Shown here: positions 1 to 7,865 of the stretch, piece by piece
Position numbering within the stretch: position 1 is the stretch's first letter
Layout of the letters: each line of letters starts with the position of its first letter
Source: a virus
Lineage: Duplodnaviria; Heunggongvirae; Uroviricota; Caudoviricetes
Virus record (IMG/VR): IMGVR_UViG_2778261393_000005
Coordinates: 1-37,935 of that record
Reading direction: 5' to 3' (one strand)
DNA: 37,935 nt
The notes under the pieces: model-generated
Seen by the model: the letters and a program-made list of their open reading frames with translations, nothing else
Told to the model about the DNA's origin: nothing
Databases searched by the model: none
Made by a program: the position numbers and the translations under genes

Positions 1-201
1 TTACCCATTGGCGCGGCTTAAGAGCTTATTTTTGAATTCACAATGGTCACGATATAACCATCTTGCTCGTCCGTGGATAACTTTGGCTTTAGGCAGGTCG
101 CCGGACTTAATCCGGTCATAGATGAAGGTCTTACCGAAGCCAGTATCAGCCATGATGAATTTCAAATCAACCAGTGAATCAGGTTGTAGTTCGTGTTGCA
201 T
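1..201 (-). CDS. xis: Excisionase / recombination directionality factor (TorI/AlpA-like small DNA-binding protein), 66 aa
   Basis: Minus-strand ORF MQHELQPDSLVDLKFIMADTGFGKTFIYDRIKSGDLPKAKVIHGRARW...; ATG at 201-199, stop at 3-1; directly upstream of int in the circular or prophage sense; recalled resemblance to TorI of E. coli KplE1. Confidence 0.7.
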   Translation of the reverse strand: MQHELQPDSLVDLKFIMADTGFGKTFIYDRIKSGDLPKAKVIHGRARWLYRDHCEFKNKLLSRANG

Positions 202-323
202 GAGTGCTATCTCCGAATATGGAATCGAACCTGCAAATCAGGCAATAAAAAGCCGCATTGATGCAGCAATGGTAGGTCTGGATATCTTGAGAAATGAACA
301 GACCTCATCGAGTGTGAGGCGGG

Positions 324-668
324 TTAGTCCTTGCGTAGCTCGCTGATTCTTCTGTAAGTCTCTGGTGCTTTGTTCCCGTACGTCTTCATTTCAGACTTCA
401 ACAGAGCAACGAGTGAATCCCATTCGTTGAGGATTCCTTTGAATGCCGGAACGCGCTTTGCAACCTTGTCGAATGAATCTCTGATTTCTGGAATCTGCTC
501 AACAAGTGCAACGCATCGCCGAAAGTCTGCTGCGTCATGGGGAGCGCCGAAGTGATGACCATAGATATTCTTTTTCAGGCCACATGCGATTGAGGCAAGA
601 GTTGCGCTACTGATGCCGACATCGCCAGTCGATTGCCATTTCAAAACCTTCATAGCCAAATCTGACAT
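324..668 (-). CDS. Hypothetical protein, 114 aa (early-left accessory gene)
   Basis: ORF MSDLAMKVLKWQSTGDVG...; ATG 668-666 preceded by GGAGA SD; sits just after tandem terminators; no family recognised. Confidence 0.5.
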   Translation of the reverse strand: MSDLAMKVLKWQSTGDVGISSATLASIACGLKKNIYGHHFGAPHDAADFRRCVALVEQIPEIRDSFDKVAKRVPAFKGILNEWDSLVALLKSEMKTYGNKAPETYRRISELRKD

Positions 669-680
669 TTCTTGTCTCCA

Positions 681-737
681 TAAAACAAAACTCGCCGTAG
701 CGAGTTCAGATAAAAGAAAACCCGCACTCTGCGGGTT
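681..737 (-). terminator. Tandem rho-independent terminators for leftward transcription
   Basis: Minus-strand hairpins AACCCGCA-GAG-TGCGGGTT followed by TTTTCTTTTAT (plus 711-737) and AACTCGC-TACG-GCGAGTT followed by TTTGTTTTAT (plus 681-706). Confidence 0.55.
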
Positions 738-1016
738 CGCATTCGTTCAAATTGCGTTTACTTCTTGGCGTTCTGTTCATCCATATCGATATACCATGGG
801 TTGCTTCCCTTGGGCATGTTTAACGACTGCTCGCGATAGTATCTGATGCGCTCCATGAAATACTCGCGTGAGTGCTCAGGTTGCTCTCATGATACCTGCT
901 CAGTGATAACAGGTATGTTAAGGCGCTCTCTGTACTCCATGCCTGATGCTGCAAGGTCAACGTTTATCTTGTTCTGTTTTTCTTTCGATTTCTCGGCGAT
1001 GTTATGCCTGACATTG

Positions 1017-1301
1017 TCAACCCGCCTCCTTCTGAACATAACGGTTATAAATCAGTCCCTGAGGGCCATAAGGAAGCGGGATGTGCAACTCCTCTGGTTC
1101 AGAAACTATCCATTCTCCGGCCATCTCCGCTGGAGAGGTAATGATAAGTTGTTTGCTAATAAAAGGACCACTCCTCTCAACAACAAGCTTACCATCTTCA
1201 TTAATAAAAGCTTGGATGTCAGGTGTGCTTCCACACTTGGTGATGCAGCGTTTGAACATTTTGTGTCCCCCCATTTTATGTACGGGGTAATTATAACACA
1301 T
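1017..1301 (-). CDS. Hypothetical protein (94 aa from ATG at 1301; alternative start MFKRC... near 1259 with GGGGGA SD)
   Basis: Protein-like minus-strand ORF, co-oriented with the early-left operon; the opposing plus ORF 846..1304 is Cys/Ser-rich and looks like a reverse-frame artifact. Confidence 0.4.
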   Translation of the reverse strand: MCYNYPVHKMGGHKMFKRCITKCGSTPDIQAFINEDGKLVVERSGPFISKQLIITSPAEMAGEWIVSEPEELHIPLPYGPQGLIYNRYVQKEAG

Positions 1302-1385
1302 TGAAATATAGTAATATTTGACGTAGATTTCTTTTGATCTATAAGCGATTTTTTAATGCTTTTAAGTTATAAATACTTGTTTTCA

Positions 1386-2042
1386 TCACCCATCTTGCTG
1401 CGGTGCTACTATTGAAAAGTGCTCACACCCTTTAGCCCAAATAGTTTTGATAGTTGTCCAACTGACTGGAACCTTGATTTCGATTCTCCCGCTACAGTCA
1501 CAAGTTTCGCAATCATCATCACCAAAGCATTCCGGGCAGCTTATAAACGTAGTTTCTGAAAATTCACCGGATAGCACACCCTTAGCGCCGTTCTCGGCTG
1601 TTAGTCTCTTCGGCACCATGACCCAACCATCCGGAGTTACCGGAGAGTTGCCCGACAGCTCGTTCAACTTGTAAGTTTGGCTTACAGGTTCGGCTTCCAG
1701 TTCTGCTATGCGCTTTTTTGCTGCTTCCAGCTCAACACGCAGCTTCCCTACCGTTAACGCAATATCCTCGTTCTCCTGGTCGCGGCGTTTGATGTATTGC
1801 TGGTTCCTTTCCCGTTCATCCAGTAGTGCCAGCACGGTAGCCGGATTAGCCTTGGCAACAAAATCCCGGACTGGCTTACAATCAATCTCCGCAATGGGTT
1901 GATACGATGTGTAGCCATGCTGTCTTGTATAACTACCGTGACGAATAACGAAAAAATCACCATTTATTTTTTTAGCCTGCCACTTATCTTCACCGGCTTT
2001 CTCTGCCGCTTCACGCAGTGCCTGATAGTCAATCTTGTTCAT
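1386..2042 (-). CDS. Ead/Ea22-like early-region protein, 218 aa
   Basis: ORF MNKIDYQALREAAEKAGEDKW... with central coiled-coil LEAAKKRIAELEAE and a Cys-rich C-terminus (CPECFGDDDCETCDC); family assignment from memory only. Confidence 0.5.
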   Translation of the reverse strand: MNKIDYQALREAAEKAGEDKWQAKKINGDFFVIRHGSYTRQHGYTSYQPIAEIDCKPVRDFVAKANPATVLALLDERERNQQYIKRRDQENEDIALTVGKLRVELEAAKKRIAELEAEPVSQTYKLNELSGNSPVTPDGWVMVPKRLTAENGAKGVLSGEFSETTFISCPECFGDDDCETCDCSGRIEIKVPVSWTTIKTIWAKGCEHFSIVAPQQDG

Positions 2043-2043
2043 G

Positions 2044-2343
2044 TCACATCACCCTGAATCCGTTGCATTTACGTAAGAAATCGCAGATATAGCCCTTCAT
2101 TTTTTCATGCCAATCTCGATCATTCCCATTGCACCAACCATCAGGTGGAGTCCAGTTTTCTATCAGATCAGCAATTTTCTTTGCTTTCGCCGGAGTAGCT
2201 GTTGCGGTATCGCAGTAATGACGAGTGTCAACCAACGTATCCATACCATCGATATCAAGTACGCAAAACCATGTGTGATTCGGCATTTCAACAGATGGTA
2301 TTTGTTGCCCACGTCGACGTTTATCAATAAGACATACACTCAC
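2044..2343 (-). CDS. Hypothetical protein, 99 aa (GTG start)
   Basis: GTG at 2343-2341 preceded by AAGGAGG SD with 6-nt spacer; GTGA overlap with upstream stop; stop 1 nt before the downstream ATG. Confidence 0.45.
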
Positions 2344-2525
2344 TGCTTGCCTCCTTTACGCCACATCGCATTCAGATATTTGTTTTGATTCACTGACGGA
2401 AAAGAATTTCTCTTAAGTAATTCCTCTCTCGATGGCATTGGCTTTACTCGTTGGCGAATAATCATTTCTGCCGGAAGAATGCCGGGATTGTATGCAAGTC
2501 CTCTCATGGTAAATTCCTCAGTCAT
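2340..2525 (-). CDS. Hypothetical small protein, about 61 aa
   Basis: ATG at 2525-2523 (MTEEFTMRG...) overlaps the stop of the upstream gene in an ATGACTGA arrangement; the longer ORF-track form 2340..2657 overlaps the upstream CDS and is less likely. Confidence 0.3.
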
Positions 2526-2811
2526 TACTGATAGCGCCATAGCGTGAGCGGTAATTACGCAGGCGCGGGTCAATTTCAGGGAAGTGGGTATATGTGGCTT
2601 TGCGGAATGGTCGGATTGATGTCTGGTAAATTCGATCGCGTTCTTCTTTCTCTGCAAGCCATATACAGTGGCGAAATTCCTTTTCCTCTTTCGTTTCCTG
2701 CGGTAGCGACATTATCCGATCGTAGTTTTTTCTGAATTTATCCAGCACCTCCGATACGGAATTGCCGGAACAGCGGCGCGGGTCATCCGCACCATACAAA
2801 GGCGCTGGCAT
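2518..2811 (-). CDS. Hypothetical protein, 97 aa
   Basis: ATG 2811-2809 with AAGGA SD; sits immediately downstream of ssb in the same operon. Confidence 0.5.
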
Positions 2812-2834
2812 AATTAAATCCTTATTTTTCTAAA

Positions 2835-3218
2835 TCAGAATGGGATGGAATCGTCGTATACAGGAGTGTTCTGCTGGTTACTACTTTGCTGCTGCGGGCC
2901 ATTTCCTGAAGCTGCAAATCCAATCTTTGCATTCAGTAATTCAAGAGTGATTGATTGACCATTTTTCCCCTGATAAATATCAACCCTGATGTTTTCTCCG
3001 GTAATTTCAACAATGCCACCTTCAACAAGAACACTACGGTAGTAATCCGCTTGCGCTCCCGGCTTGGCAAATACAACGGCGCTGTAGTTTGTCCATTCTT
3101 TCTTTTTTGTCTGGCGTTCGTAATACTGAACGCCAGCACGGATGTTGAATCCGATATTTTCCCCGGTCTGAAACTCTCTTGCGGGCTTGTTTAGTCTTAC
3201 AGTAATCGAATGTGCCAT
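2835..3218 (-). CDS. ssb: Single-stranded DNA-binding protein (phage SSB)
   Basis: MAHSITVRLNKPAREFQ... ending in acidic tail ...PVYDDSIPF (SSB C-terminal motif); ATG 3218-3216 overlaps erf stop (TAATG); the ORF-track N-terminal extension is discounted. Confidence 0.75.
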   Translation of the reverse strand: MAHSITVRLNKPAREFQTGENIGFNIRAGVQYYERQTKKKEWTNYSAVVFAKPGAQADYYRSVLVEGGIVEITGENIRVDIYQGKNGQSITLELLNAKIGFAASGNGPQQQSSNQQNTPVYDDSIPF

Positions 3219-3823
3219 TAAGCAGCAGCTCCTTCTAATTCGTCTCGTCTGATGTTGTAAACGTCCTGCGCTTTGTGCTGCTCCGGTGTGCCTTCGAGCA
3301 TCTTCCACGCTTTGGCGAACGCCTGTTTAAGCTCTTCTACGGTGTTTTTCTGCATTGCTGCGTCAGTGAATGCTTTTAGAACCTGTTCAGGTGTAGGTGA
3401 TGGTTTTGATTGCTTTGCTGCTGCGTTCTGCTGATGTTTATGCTCGTCGGTATCTGCATCTTTCGCATCATCAATGCCGAATAAACCATTGAGGCAATAC
3501 TTGCGTGCATAAGAGCTTGTAGCTCCCGTAACTTGTGCAGAATCCATTCCTTTCTTGCTTTCTTCCTCTCGTGCAAGAGCGGTTGCCGTATGACTGTTTT
3601 CGCCATCGGTAATAGTTGCCGTGGCTTTCACGTAATACCGATCACCAATCAACACAACTTCATCGCTGATTGATAAAAACAGGCCATTCAGTAGCGGCTT
3701 AACGCCTTCAAGAATGTCTTCGCAGCTTCTGTATTTATATTTACCGAATGAGTTGTACTGATTCTTTGGCGCGTTCAGATTCTCCTGAATAGCTGCCAGT
3801 CTTGCGTAAAATTCTTTGCTCAT
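3218..3823 (-). CDS. erf: Erf single-strand annealing recombinase (P22 Erf-like)
   Basis: MSKEFYARLAAIQENLNAPKNQYNSFGKYKYRSCEDILEGVKPLL... matches recalled P22 Erf N-terminus; ATG 3823-3821; the ORF track begins at an upstream TTG. Confidence 0.85.
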   Translation of the reverse strand: MSKEFYARLAAIQENLNAPKNQYNSFGKYKYRSCEDILEGVKPLLNGLFLSISDEVVLIGDRYYVKATATITDGENSHTATALAREEESKKGMDSAQVTGATSSYARKYCLNGLFGIDDAKDADTDEHKHQQNAAAKQSKPSPTPEQVLKAFTDAAMQKNTVEELKQAFAKAWKMLEGTPEQHKAQDVYNIRRDELEGAAA

Positions 3824-3833
3824 ATGTTTGTTC

Positions 3834-4004
3834 TCAGAATGGACATTCCCCAAGGAAATAACGCTGATTTAATACTTCGACTCGGGACAAATTAAGGCAT
3901 ACCCGCATTCCTTCGCGGTCGCCATTATGGCGATACCAGAGAGCTTTCTGCGTGTACATGCGTCTCTGTAACTTGCTCTCCTTCACTGTGGTTGCAAGTG
4001 ACAT
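3834..4004 (-). CDS. Small ORF, 56 aa, in the arf position between kil and erf
   Basis: ATG 4004-4002 preceded by AAGGAG SD with 7-nt spacer; MSLATTVKESKLQRRMYTQKALWYRHNGD...; an alternative overlapping frame (3925..4083, ATGA-coupled to kil) also exists. Confidence 0.3.
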   Translation of the reverse strand: MSLATTVKESKLQRRMYTQKALWYRHNGDREGMRVCLNLSRVEVLNQRYFLGECPF

Positions 4005-4372: not shown

Positions 4373-5341
4373 TTAGTAGGTTATTTTTGTTGCGAATACT
4401 TCGCCTTTTACGATGGCTGTTATGATATTTTTAGCAACATCTTCTGATGCACCAACCTTGATAAGGTCAGCAAGTATTTTGTTATTTACTTCTTTCCGGT
4501 GAGCTTTATCCTTTGCTCTACGCTCTTCTTCTTCCTTGATTCTTTTTTCTTCTGCTATTCTGGCTTGCTCTTTTGCTTCAGCCTCGCGCCGGATTCGTTC
4601 AGCCTCCTCCTGTGCTTTTCGGCGTTCTGCTTCAATTGCCGCCTGCTTTTCTCTTTCAGCTCGTTCTGCTGCCTCTTTTGCTTCGCGCTGTGCTCGTTGC
4701 TCGGCTTCAATGCGTTCACGCTCTGCACGTTCCGCTGCGGCCTTAGCTTCTGCTTCTCGCCTTGCTGCTGCTTCAATTTCGGCTTTTGCCTTTGCTTCGG
4801 CTTCTGCTCTGGCTCTCTCTTCAGCTTCTCTTTTTAAGCGTTCTTCATGCTCTCGCTTTTCCCGCTCCGCTTTGAGTCTTGCCTCTTCTCTTTGGCGGTC
4901 AAATTCGCGATCCATCAAAATCGCTATTTCATGGTCAGACTCAATTTGCTTTGCGAGAGCTTCAGCTGCTGCCTTAGCTTCTTCTTCGGCTTTAATCCGT
5001 GCCTGTTCCTCCTCATAATCAGTAAGAGGCTGGCGCGCCTTGGCTTTCAGCTCATCAAGGCGATCACGCACTGTCTTGCGGTTGGCATCAATTAGCTTTG
5101 GAATTTCCTTCAGTTCAGCAACAAGGTCTTTGCCAAGACCATCGAGATATGTTTTCGTCTGCGCAACTTTATACGCCAGAGAAGCGATCTCCTTTCTGCC
5201 CTTTGCCGTTGTGATATCAGGCACAAAGGACATAACTTCACGTTCAACCCTTTGAAGGATTTCTTCAATCTGGTCGGCAGACTGAAATACAGTCATTGCA
5301 TTTGCTTTTTCAATAACAACTAAATCTGTTACTTCACTCAT
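4373..5341 (-). CDS. Hypothetical coiled-coil protein with long E/A/R/K-rich low-complexity repeat
   Basis: ATG 5341-5339 (MSEVTDLVVIEK...) with GGAGGA SD; about 150 aa of near-pure EAKR repeats; underlying DNA is repetitive (gcttc/gctgc). Confidence 0.55.
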   Translation of the reverse strand: MSEVTDLVVIEKANAMTVFQSADQIEEILQRVEREVMSFVPDITTAKGRKEIASLAYKVAQTKTYLDGLGKDLVAELKEIPKLIDANRKTVRDRLDELKAKARQPLTDYEEEQARIKAEEEAKAAAEALAKQIESDHEIAILMDREFDRQREEARLKAEREKREHEERLKREAEERARAEAEAKAKAEIEAAARREAEAKAAAERAERERIEAEQRAQREAKEAAERAEREKQAAIEAERRKAQEEAERIRREAEAKEQARIAEEKRIKEEEERRAKDKAHRKEVNNKILADLIKVGASEDVAKNIITAIVKGEVFATKITY

Positions 5342-5353
5342 ATATCCTCCGTC

Positions 5354-5382
5354 AAAAAAATTGCCCTCACACTGGAGGGCAA
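5354..5382 (-). terminator. Rho-independent terminator (leftward), between ral and the coiled-coil gene
   Basis: Minus-strand hairpin TTGCCCTC-cagtgt-GAGGGCAA followed by TTTTTTT. Confidence 0.5.
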
Positions 5383-5516
5383 AGAAGATTTCCAATAATC
5401 AGAACAAGTCGGCTCCTGTTTAGTTACGAGCGACATTGCTCCGTGTATTCACTCATTGGAATGAATACACAGTGCAGTGTTTATTCTGTTGTTTATGCCA
5501 AAAATAAAGGCTACCA

Positions 5517-5717
5517 TCAGGCAGCCTTGTTATTCTGTTTACCAAGTTCTCTGGCAATCATTGCCGTCGTTCGTATTGCCCATTTATCGACATATTTCCC
5601 ATCTTCCATTACAGGAAACATTTCTTCAGGCTTAACCATGCATTCCGATTGCAGCTTGCATCCATTGCATCGTTTGAATTGTCCACACCATTGATTCTTA
5701 TCAATAGTCGTAGTCAT
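5517..5717 (-). CDS. ral: Ral restriction-alleviation protein
   Basis: 66-aa ORF MTTTIDKNQWCGQFKRCNGCKLQSECMVKPEEMFPVMEDGKYVDKWAIRTTAMIARELGKQNNKAA, recalled as lambda Ral. Confidence 0.8.
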   Translation of the reverse strand: MTTTIDKNQWCGQFKRCNGCKLQSECMVKPEEMFPVMEDGKYVDKWAIRTTAMIARELGKQNNKAA

Positions 5718-5795: not shown

Positions 5796-6122
5796 TCAAA
5801 TAAGTGGTTTGCTGCCTAATTTCATTTTCTGGCGACCAACACAAGTCACCCCCATTTCACTGCGTGGCTTGCTGTACCATGTGCGCTGATTCTTGCGCTC
5901 AATACGTTGCAGGTTGCTTTCAATCTGTTCGTGGTATTCAGCCAGCACCGTAAGGTCTATCGGATTCAGTGCGCTTTCTACTCGTGATTTCGGTTTGCGA
6001 TTCAGCGAGAGAATAGGGCGGTTAACTGGTTTTGCGCTTACCCCAACCAACAGGGGATTTGCTGCTTTCCATTGAGCCTGTTTCTCTGCGCGACGTTCGC
6101 GGCGGCGTGTTTGTGCATCCAT
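5796..6122 (-). CDS. N: Antitermination protein N
   Basis: MDAQTRRRERRAEKQAQWKAANPLLVGVSAKPVNRPILSLNRKPKSRVESALNPIDL... (arginine-rich motif, lambda N-like); ATG 6122-6120 with AGGAG SD; the ORF-track N-terminal extension is discounted. Confidence 0.85.
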   Translation of the reverse strand: MDAQTRRRERRAEKQAQWKAANPLLVGVSAKPVNRPILSLNRKPKSRVESALNPIDLTVLAEYHEQIESNLQRIERKNQRTWYSKPRSEMGVTCVGRQKMKLGSKPLI

Positions 6123-6279: not shown

Positions 6280-6310
6280 GCCCTTCTTCAGGGCTTAATT
6301 TTTAAGAGCG
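6280..6310 (-). promoter_or_regulatory. nutL: nutL site (boxA CGCTCTTAA + boxB GCCCTGAAGAAGGGC)
   Basis: Minus strand reads CGCTCTTAAAAATTAAGCCCTGAAGAAGGGC between pL and N; matches recalled lambda nutL. Confidence 0.8.
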
Positions 6311-6488: not shown

Positions 6489-6803
6489 TCAGAAGCTATT
6501 TGGATTGCTTGGCCATTGCGGCAATTTTGATTCTACTGGGGTGTGTTTGGGTTTGAGTCCGTTTAAGTAGTCAAGGCGCTCAATGGCGCATTTATACATA
6601 GCAATCTGCTCTGATGACATGTCGTCGTATGACATGCCTTTGAACTTTTTAATTATCGATTCTGCCTCATGTATAAGATTCTTCTTCCTCATGAGTTCAG
6701 CTGTATGCTTAGAGCTTACAGGAGATAACTTTGCCCATATGAAGCAGATGATTACAACAGCGACTACTATGCCGGGTATAAACATTTGCTGCTTTATCCT
6801 CAA
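6489..6803 (-). CDS. Small single-pass membrane protein co-transcribed with cI (candidate exclusion/immunity-region moron), 104 aa
   Basis: ATG 6803-6801 overlaps cI stop 6802-6800 (ATGA); N-terminal hydrophobic helix IPGIVVAVVIICFIWA; occupies the rexAB slot between cI and pL. Confidence 0.55.
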   Translation of the reverse strand: MRIKQQMFIPGIVVAVVIICFIWAKLSPVSSKHTAELMRKKNLIHEAESIIKKFKGMSYDDMSSEQIAMYKCAIERLDYLNGLKPKHTPVESKLPQWPSNPNSF

Positions 6804-7486
6804 ACTTTTGGCAGATCGTCCTGGTCTACGTACCTGGTGTGTTTCACAATAGCTGAAACAAAATGCATTTTATCAACTTCTTCAACAGGAAGAGTGATTG
6901 GGCGGTGATCACTGTTTATGCTACTAAACTGATAATCACCGTCTCTTGTTTTGTTCATGATCTTTATCATGTTGTGACCGTCTTTGGTCCTTACAAAGAC
7001 TTCATCACCTGGATGTACTGGCGTATTTGGTTCAATAACAACATATTCTCCTGACTGAATCCTTGGCCACATGCTGTCACCCTTAACCTTCAGACCGTAA
7101 GCATCTTTATCGCCGCTGTAGATGCTTAACCAACCGGATCTGAATTCAATCATATCCACTGAGCCATCAACTCCCAAAACGGCTTCACCAATTACCGGAA
7201 CAAAACCCGCACGAACGTTACCCGCAAACTCAAGATGGTCCGTAGCTCCAGCTTTACCATCTGCAAGCATGTCCATCCATCCGCGTGGGAGATTAAAAGA
7301 TTTTTCAATTAGTTCCATCATATCGTCAGCAATGCGTTTTTTTCCGCTTTTTCCTTCCGGATACAGCATTCTGGAAACGTATGATGGTTCCCTTTCTATT
7401 CGACGAGCCAACTCTGAGGCCTTTCCATTACAGAATCGGTCTCTTATCTCTATCAGCCTTAGTCGTCTTTGTTCGTATTTATCCAT
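6800..7486 (-). CDS. cI: CI repressor (HTH N-domain plus LexA/S24-like autocleavage domain)
   Basis: 228-aa ORF with Ala-Gly site (DGKAGATD), catalytic Ser context GDSMWP and downstream Lys; start about 20 nt from OR3; divergent from cro. Confidence 0.85.
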   Translation of the reverse strand: MDKYEQRRLRLIEIRDRFCNGKASELARRIEREPSYVSRMLYPEGKSGKKRIADDMMELIEKSFNLPRGWMDMLADGKAGATDHLEFAGNVRAGFVPVIGEAVLGVDGSVDMIEFRSGWLSIYSGDKDAYGLKVKGDSMWPRIQSGEYVVIEPNTPVHPGDEVFVRTKDGHNMIKIMNKTRDGDYQFSSINSDHRPITLPVEEVDKMHFVSAIVKHTRYVDQDDLPKV

Positions 7487-7833: not shown

Positions 7834-7865
7834 CGCTCTTACACATCCCCGCCCTGAAAAAGGGC
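7834..7865 (+). promoter_or_regulatory. nutR: nutR site (boxA CGCTCTTAC + boxB GCCCTGAAAAAGGGC)
   Basis: CGCTCTTACACATCCCCGCCCTGAAAAAGGGC just downstream of cro; matches recalled lambda nutR. Confidence 0.8.

Follow-up and report, generated by a model that had tools for sequence, protein, structure and literature searches.

The early-left operons of P22-like phages, most of whose genes are of unknown function (PMC8022706), carry an 'ea' region between erf/abc2 and xis/int, represented by eaA to eaI in P22, genes 17 to 24 in Sf6 and the hka genes in HK620 and CUS-3. The equivalent pL accessory stretch of lambda and the Stx phages is the exo-xis region (ea22, ea8.5, orf60a, orf61, orf63 and orf73), whose Ea22-family protein influences the lysis-lysogeny decision. 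Lambda Ea22 is pro-lysogenic and is composed of an N-domain, a coiled coil or central helical region and a variable C-terminal domain, the last of which has a nuclear magnetic resonance structure (PMC10834534). Here we describe the corresponding interval, positions 324 to 2811, of IMG/VR virus record IMGVR_UViG_2778261393_000005; the window analysed is this whole 37,935 nt stretch, which is in its entirety a P22-like podovirus prophage with virion genes 95-96% identical to those of HK620, Sf6 and their relatives. The interval is a new mosaic of known families, ordinary rather than new, and is very probably the non-essential distal end, with accessory genes, of the pL (early-left) operon in a P22-like prophage of HK620/Sf6 type that has lambda N/nut control; it is assembled from four units.

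The genes have the same position, strand and operon as those of P22, Sf6 and HK620/CUS-3, and share with the P22-like 'ea' regions the families Ead (PF13935), Sf6 gene 22 (DUF7739), Sf6 gene 23 (DUF2737) and abc2. They differ in having a cassette of orf80 and a hot pseudogene, a single-stranded DNA binding protein (SSB) of the HK97 gp40 type and the lambda N/nut system. At least 80% of this combination (positions 200-2900) is found in only 8 of 5426 complete E. coli genomes, whilst pieces of it are found in 3103 of the 5426. The likeness to the lambda/Stx exo-xis region is confined to the Ead/Ea22 N-domain, and none of the other exo-xis open reading frames (ORFs) is present here. The features of the block and its immediate neighbours are as follows.

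1-201, minus strand: TorI-type excisionase gene (xis), 66 aa, the boundary of the block; its RefSeq homologue in HK633 is named 'response regulator inhibitor TorI'.
252-320, minus strand: two weaker terminator-like hairpins between orf114 and xis (terminator scan; fold z=-1.8 only).
324-668, minus strand: orf114, 114 aa (phrog_1229), one of a large family of early phage proteins that lacks annotation.
666-1652, minus strand: recurrent 987-bp mosaic module, comprising the Ead C-terminal domain, a leader, orf80, the hot pseudogene and tandem terminators.
738-718 and 707-688, minus strand: two tandem intrinsic-terminator hairpins with U-tracts (terminator scan; -26.3 kcal/mol, z=-3.7).
758-1039, minus strand: hot/holE-like pseudogene (PF06440, E=3.5e-15), overlapping the end of orf80.
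1017-1259, minus strand: orf80, 80 aa (phrog_9613, WP_000476264), annotated as 243 nt in relatives by the Prokaryotic Genome Annotation Pipeline (PGAP).
1260-1385, minus strand: AT-rich leader of orf80, 126 nt (GC 0.40, against about 0.46-0.49 in the flanks).
1386-1652, minus strand: conserved C-terminal cassette of the Ead/Ea22-like gene, GNSPVTPDGWVMVPKRLTAENGAKGVLSGEFSET..CPECFGDDDCETCD(G/C)SGRIEI..., with 340 homologues.
1386-2042, minus strand: Ead/Ea22-like gene, 218 aa, with PF13935 at aa 3-114 and an unrelated C-terminal domain at aa ~131-218.
2044-2343, minus strand: DUF7739 gene, 99 aa (Sf6 gene 22 / CUS-3 hkaH; PF24881; phrog_1239, E=2.7e-55).
2340-2507, minus strand: DUF2737 gene, 55 aa (HK97 gp38 / Sf6 gene 23; PF10930, phrog_1117).
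2518-2811, minus strand: abc2 (anti-RecBCD protein 2), 97 aa (PF11043, phrog_656).
2835-3218, minus strand: SSB-like gene of the HK97 gp40 type, 127 aa (phrog_44, E=1.4e-26).
3218-3853, minus strand: erf, encoding a single-strand annealing protein (PF04404, E=2.4e-44; phrog_155, E=7.6e-58).

A preliminary description of this interval had proposed six tightly coupled minus-strand ORFs of 114, 94, 218, 99, about 61 and 97 aa, lying between erf/ssb and xis and almost all unrecognised. The two-strand ORF listing bears out those of 114, 218 and 97 aa, as well as the 99 aa ORF with its GTG start, and the block does follow erf and the SSB-like gene and precede a TorI-type xis. The other two sizes have to be revised: the '94-aa' ORF, listed at 1017-1301, exists, but its true length is 80 aa from the ATG at 1259, and the 'about 61-aa' gene encodes 55 aa, starting at the ATG at 2507 within a listed ORF that extends over 2340-2657. 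A seventh gene, the HOT/theta homologue at 758-1039, had been omitted. A Shine-Dalgarno (SD) motif is present ahead of every start. The tight coupling applies to abc2, DUF2737, DUF7739 and ead (gaps of 10, -4 and 1 nt), but not beyond ead, where the gaps widen to 126, 89 and 122 nt and a terminator scan and folding place terminator-like hairpins in two of the three; upstream, erf and ssb are separated by -1 nt and ssb and abc2 by 23 nt.

Profile searches placed every ORF in a recurrent family, with only abc2, a modifier of RecBCD, being well studied. The block can thus no longer be called wholly uncharacterised, as the 97 aa ORF is Abc2 and the others fall into DUF2737, DUF7739, phrog_1229 and phrog_9613. 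The view of the region as an accessory hotspot agrees with the gene sets found between abc2 and xis in relatives, which differ from one another and include DUF550, DUF551, an HNH endonuclease and the Lar restriction-alleviation gene. Variable sites are in excess at the third codon position in abc2, DUF2737, orf114, torI and the SSB-like gene; torI, which has a counterpart in the corresponding place in E. coli strain 1223, shows 21 synonymous variant codons and one non-synonymous.

The first of the four units is a recombination module that ends with abc2. The Abc2 protein matches PF11043 along residues 1-97 of 97 (211.2 bits, cutoff 25; E=1.8e-63), and 88 of the 97 residues (~91%) are identical to chain 8b1t_A of P22 Abc2, whose structure was determined in complex with RecBCD (PDB 8B1T, E=5.8e-58). 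It therefore resembles P22 Abc2 in its full-length family match, identity and genomic partners, and differs by nine substitutions and by the absence of abc1, an SSB-like gene instead occupying the slot between erf and abc2. P22 Abc2 binds the Chi-recognition domains of RecC and alters RecBCD (PMC9836394; PMC12315714), and this likeness suggests that the protein encoded in the window may also bind RecC and change the response to Chi; in the mechanism we propose, it would re-programme RecBCD for the phage through the Chi-recognition region of RecC. The number of Chi sites in the window is uninformative (none, against 0.9 expected).

Lambdoid Rec modules consist of contiguous genes for an annealing protein, an SSB and an anti-RecBCD protein (PMC12315714). 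The ATG of the SSB-like gene overlaps the erf stop codon (TAATG), and its product has an SSB-like acidic tip, DDSIPF, at the C terminus; no Pfam match or PDB sequence match was found for it. Its HK633 homologue, gp35, is annotated 'similar to HK97 Gp40', and HK97 gp40 has been described in a 2025 paper as a highly divergent SSB fold, 'SSB-1b' (PMC12315714). The module of erf, SSB-like gene and abc2 is completed by abc2, its last gene; because Abc2 is identified and belongs to this Rec module, abc2 is neither uncharacterised nor truly part of the accessory block. The true start of erf is probably the ATG at 3823, rather than the listed TTG at 3853, since relatives annotate a 606-nt coding sequence.

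The second unit comprises the DUF2737, DUF7739 and ead/ea22-like genes, which would form a translationally coupled series with abc2. The DUF2737 protein matches positions 1-51 of 53 of PF10930 (E=4.6e-31, 106.9 bits, cutoff 25), and the DUF7739 protein positions 2-92 of 98 of PF24881 (E=3.2e-21, 76.2 bits, cutoff 27). The GTG start of the latter lies within a GTGA overlap with the DUF2737 stop codon, and is preceded by AAAGGAGG. The term 'DUF2737' occurs in none of the papers searched. The start of this gene is 10 nt past the abc2 stop codon, and it follows abc2 in 76 of the 79 IMG/VR loci with a near-identical abc2 (L042-L120), starting within 60 nt of abc2 in 61 of the 78 that have enough downstream DNA; by comparison, DUF7739, ead, orf114 and the orf80-hot cassette vary in their presence among the 79. 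These loci are biased towards close relatives, hence the linkage is only a hint, and the adjacency may represent either a functional pairing or merely shared descent.

The tentative assignment of the 218 aa protein to Ead/Ea22 holds for its N-terminal half, the match to PF13935 (E=8.4e-28, 98.1 bits, cutoff 27) extending over aa 3-114 only. A weak helical match to PspA_IM30 is found at aa 64-118, and there was no PDB sequence match to the protein at E<=1. In sequence, the C-terminal domain is unrelated to the solved C-terminal domain of lambda Ea22. Its 340 homologues are found in E. coli, Salmonella, Klebsiella and Citrobacter and share a near-invariant core of ~85 aa, which in other prophages has a wide range of unrelated N-termini attached, Ead_Ea22 and PF04447/DUF550 among them. 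The cassette has no Pfam family, the best Pfam match being Anti-TRAP at E=0.68, and the AlphaFold2 (AF2) model of the domain is poor, with a predicted local distance difference test (pLDDT) score of 52.5. Alignment of its cysteine cluster, CPECFGDDxCxTCDGSGRIE, with zinc centre II of E. coli DnaJ using hhalign gave a probability of 75% across 22 columns; this likeness probably explains why PGAP names some entries 'molecular chaperone DnaJ'. At residue 183 of the protein encoded here (window position 1496, minus strand), a Cys replaces the Gly that most homologues have in the CxxCxGxG motif (CETCDCSGR versus CETCDGSGR).

This C-terminal domain also travels with the third unit, a cassette of orf80 and the hot pseudogene. 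The 987-bp module is present at 93-99% identity in around 30 IMG/VR contigs, with differing neighbours to the left and right. Its left breakpoint is at ead residue 131, exactly where the conserved C-terminal domain begins, and its right breakpoint is the start codon of orf114. One such contig (L006) has the same C-terminal domain on a different N-terminus, and there the module is directly followed by a lambda-type xis and int. The orf80-hot cassette is found in 84 of the 5426 complete E. coli genomes and in one of the 79 abc2-linked loci. The 58-nt junction at 666-723, composed of the second terminator hairpin and the orf114 ribosome binding site (RBS), by itself matches more than 1200 complete E. 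coli genomes, compared to the 84 with the cassette, and looks like a shared boundary for cassette exchange.

Morons are additional genes of lambdoid phages that sit between conserved ones and bring a promoter and a terminator of their own. The concept reportedly goes back to Juhala and colleagues in 2000. The promoter-like motif, the terminators and the low GC of the unit described here amount to the anatomy of a moron, and orf80 with the hot pseudogene would thus form a moron-like, separately mobile cassette, travelling with the Ead C-terminal domain as the 987-bp module. As in HK97- and HK022-type morons, there is presence/absence polymorphism, a low GC content (0.40), a promoter-like motif upstream and strong terminators downstream; in contrast to these, the mobile unit here includes the 3' third of ead, such that one boundary is intragenic, and the promoter is putative. 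The motif in question, an extended -10 TGnTATAAT at 1298-1290 (TG at 1298-1297, TATAAT at 1295-1290), is a match to the consensus only and belongs to the leader of orf80. Its hexamer is invariant across 22 copies of the module, and is partly kept in a more distant locus, L041, in which around 110 nt of the leader are conserved, including TGTGTTAT(AAT/GCT).

Other structures are apparent in the leader. A 6-bp hairpin (1287-1282 with 1274-1269; CCCCGU with AUGGGG) overlaps the orf80 SD, and L041 has a hairpin of another sequence (UGGUUC with GAGCCA) at the corresponding site. Since the 5' arm follows the putative -10 but precedes the predicted +1 (~1283), only transcripts reading through from pL would carry the arm that occludes the SD, a speculative suggestion drawn from two sequence types only. 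On the plus strand, a promoter-like site at 1301-1329 (TTGAAA, 17 nt, TAGATT) stands back-to-back with the minus-strand TGnTATAAT; both sites are conserved in L041, and the plus-strand one would fire antisense into the 3' end of ead.

As for orf80 itself, a 94 aa version was rejected on the grounds that the PHROG alignment starts at residue 13, PGAP annotates 243 nt and a length polymorphism in the upstream G-run would cause a frameshift. The 80 aa protein has no Pfam or NCBIfam family, and the function of phrog_9613 is not annotated. An antisense ORF of 152 aa (846-1304, plus strand) was also rejected: it is antisense to hot, its variable sites number 8, 8 and 1 at the three codon positions and it has no Pfam match. 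A scan of 1-4000 with Rfam gave only a sub-threshold rsmX hit (27 bits, gathering threshold 56) over the terminator hairpins, which was discarded.

The second gene of the cassette shows homology to P1 HOT and E. coli HolE across the whole fold. Its read-through translation matches residues 5-77 of P1 HOT (PDB 1se7) at E=4.2e-28, including both halves, and the frame matches the theta subunit of E. coli DNA polymerase III at E=8.7e-15; NCBIfam also matched the hot fragment, but none of the six ORFs. In contrast to these homologues, the copy here has an in-frame TGA (889-887) where '(A/E)REQPE' would have its conserved Arg, which interrupts the frame, and the ATG at 1014-1012, which follows an AAGGAGG RBS, is out of frame. 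Intact, more distant hot genes of the L034 type start with MSNHNIAAK, whereas this clade is one base short just past the ATG, hence the loss of frame from the RBS-linked start.

The fourth unit is orf114, which would be an early gene standing by itself, drawn from a large family in phages and situated just ahead of xis. It has no Pfam or NCBIfam family. An AF2 model from an 11-sequence alignment has a pLDDT of 93.7 and is all-helical, with seven helices; the fold has no relative in the PDB, and Foldseek against viral models retrieved uncharacterised proteins only (template modelling scores of 0.70-0.95), including ones from Clavibacter phage CN1A and a giant virus. Profile searches identified 2849 clusters (50% identity) at E<=1e-3 and 653 at E<=1e-10. 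The residues W11, S20, P43, D45, D48, R51, C52 and W83 are invariant, giving the signature SS / PxDxxDxxRC / W. The homologues are annotated as hypothetical; in virulent phages of Klebsiella, Vibrio and Clavibacter their neighbours are small early genes, whilst in a Mannheimia prophage the homologue lies two genes ahead of int. For distant homologues, the surrounding DNA retrieved consisted of short contigs only. Potential fusion partners were set aside, as only one of 32 long members had recognisable domains, and this was on a 1.9-kb contig (L122, Logan SRR30503383), in which the orf114-family domain is at the C-terminus of a CCA-adding enzyme (a tRNA nucleotidyltransferase with PolyA_pol, RNA-binding and HD domains). 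The family is found in phages of Proteobacteria and Actinobacteria, both temperate and virulent. We consider it a rather doubtful proposition that orf114 is the founder, so far without a name, of this very large family, perhaps acting as a widely used host-takeover or counter-defence effector on a conserved bacterial factor. The family is the one lead with some potential.

The control genes of the window are of the lambda type, with kil and cIII present in addition to the following.

5796-6122, minus strand: lambda-type N gene (start ~6122), the protein beginning MDAQTRRRERRAEKQAQWKAAN.
6280-6294, minus strand: nutL boxB, GCCCTGAAGAAGGGC, an exact match (0.01 expected by chance).
6800-7486: cI-like repressor gene.
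7851-7865, plus strand: nutR.

N and the nutL boxB are upstream of the block on the same strand, with no opposing genes between, and pL/N-driven expression of the block is therefore plausible. Upon induction, N-modified RNA polymerase from pL would override the internal terminators, leading to expression of every gene in the block, whilst in the lysogen only the cassette could be transcribed, from its own putative promoter.

Two alternatives to this account of the block as the accessory end of the pL operon concern mainly the cassette. The TGA in hot could be functional, with read-through giving a low level of full-length HOT, or a truncated 50 aa fragment acting on the epsilon proofreading subunit. 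The TGA allele is indeed dominant, being carried by 27 of the 35 IMG/VR loci and by 19 of the module's 22 distinct copies (the remaining three having CGA), the downstream frame is open to the normal stop codon in most copies, and strong similarity to P1 HOT is retained in both halves. However, the copies are 97-99% identical, such that the open frame may reflect a recent lesion, and other lesions have arisen independently: a second stop codon in L030, which is a TGA copy, a different stop codon in the more distant L037, and frameshifts in L033, L039 and L040. Two of the three CGA copies have deletions of their own, one of a single base and one of two bases. Neither half shows an excess of variable sites at the third position (5, 2 and 4 in one half; 4, 1 and 4 in the other), the SD-linked ATG is 1 nt out of frame relative to the L034-type genes, and in two E. 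coli chromosomes PGAP treats this gene as a pseudogene, flagged 'internal stop'. Nor is TGA particularly prone to read-through when the next base is G. A functional TGA is accordingly judged very improbable; by these comparisons, hot is a decaying pseudogene in the window and in most related prophages, and not a case of programmed read-through. It is slightly less improbable, though still most unlikely, that some ORFs, chiefly orf80, are chance ORFs in a non-coding regulatory or RNA spacer. With only 9 clusters among 5.8 billion proteins, nearly all from E. coli, variable sites numbering 1, 8 and 8 by codon position within the clade and a leader as conserved as the gene itself, orf80 has some of the characteristics to be expected of such a spacer. 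Against this, comparison with the L041 homologue, which has 70% aa identity, keeps the frame and lies elsewhere in the genome, behind PerC and DUF977 genes, gives a ratio of non-synonymous to synonymous substitution rates (dN/dS) of 0.12-0.19. There is also a GGGGGGA SD 6 nt ahead of the orf80 ATG, the antisense 152 aa ORF has the opposite codon-position pattern and no Rfam family reached threshold in 1-4000. On the strength of its dN/dS, orf80 is taken to be a real gene.

A broader alternative is that the block is an anti-defence island in which, beyond Abc2, at least one of DUF2737, DUF7739, the Ead C-terminal domain, orf80 and orf114 inhibits host immune systems, such as restriction, abortive infection, CBASS or retrons, early in infection. 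Abc2 heads the block; a Lar gene occupies the same slot in relatives, and a Lar-like gene lies a few genes from the orf114 homologue of Vibrio phage D56; phages of either lifestyle, virulent or temperate, have their orf114 homologues within runs of small early genes; and fast-swapping small early genes are a classic site of counter-defence (Silas et al., bioRxiv 10.1101/2023.04.06.535777). The preliminary description had likewise suggested anti-defence functions, which stands for Abc2 alone, the other ORFs having no functional lead in Pfam, NCBIfam or the PDB. Nor was there sequence or fold similarity to characterised anti-defence proteins in Pfam, NCBIfam, PADLOC or the PDB; PADLOC, which models defence systems and not anti-defence proteins, returned no families at E<=1 for the six ORFs. 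Peptide fragments of the ORFs are absent from the supplements of two accessory-gene screens by Silas et al., Ea22, the only family member studied by experiment, acts on the choice between lysis and lysogeny and not on defence, and one gene of the block is a pseudogene. An anti-defence island is thus unlikely, if the least so of these alternatives. By analogy with lambda Ea22, the likeliest role for the DUF proteins would be to modulate host physiology or the choice between lysis and lysogeny, and not an essential function.

A number of points nonetheless weigh against the interpretation of the interval as an accessory part of the pL operon. To describe DUF2737, DUF7739, the Ead C-terminal domain, orf80 and orf114 as ordinary accessory genes is a classification and not a mechanism. 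The conserved adjacency hints that DUF2737 may belong functionally with abc2, in recombination and the counteraction of RecBCD, rather than with the accessory set; as a secondary possibility, it might be an unrecognised partner in RecBCD modification. Within the clade, the variable sites of DUF7739 (6, 6 and 11 by codon position) point to weak constraint, and those of orf80 are either uninformative or point the same way. The sigma-70 scan did not call the TGnTATAAT motif, and there is no recognisable -35. The position of pL, between nutL and the genes on the cI side, is deduced from location alone, and the transcription pattern of the block is likewise inferred.

Further ORFs of the window lie outside the block. 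Between the cI-like repressor gene and N, a 104 aa ORF with an N-terminal hydrophobic helix (6489-6803, minus strand) occupies the place that rex has in lambda and sieB in P22, making it a candidate for an exclusion gene expressed by the prophage. Directly downstream of N is a Cys-rich ORF of 66 aa (5517-5717, minus strand; CGQFKRCNGCKLQSEC). A 340 aa early-left ORF at 4373-5395, also on the minus strand, has a long repeat region rich in Glu, Ala, Lys and Arg and an AT skew down to -0.6; PGAP names its relatives 'cell envelope biogenesis protein TolA'.

As one more mosaic of a region already known to be variable and mostly unannotated, the block in itself matters little. Its practical value is in the corrected annotation, with abc2 recognised, the hot pseudogene identified, orf80 resized to 80 aa and the moron-like cassette delimited. 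Leads for screening are orf114, with its confidently predicted new fold, the abc2-DUF2737 pair and the shuffled zinc-knuckle cassette at the C terminus of Ead. If any of these leads does target a host defence or replication factor, the finding would apply to thousands of phages.

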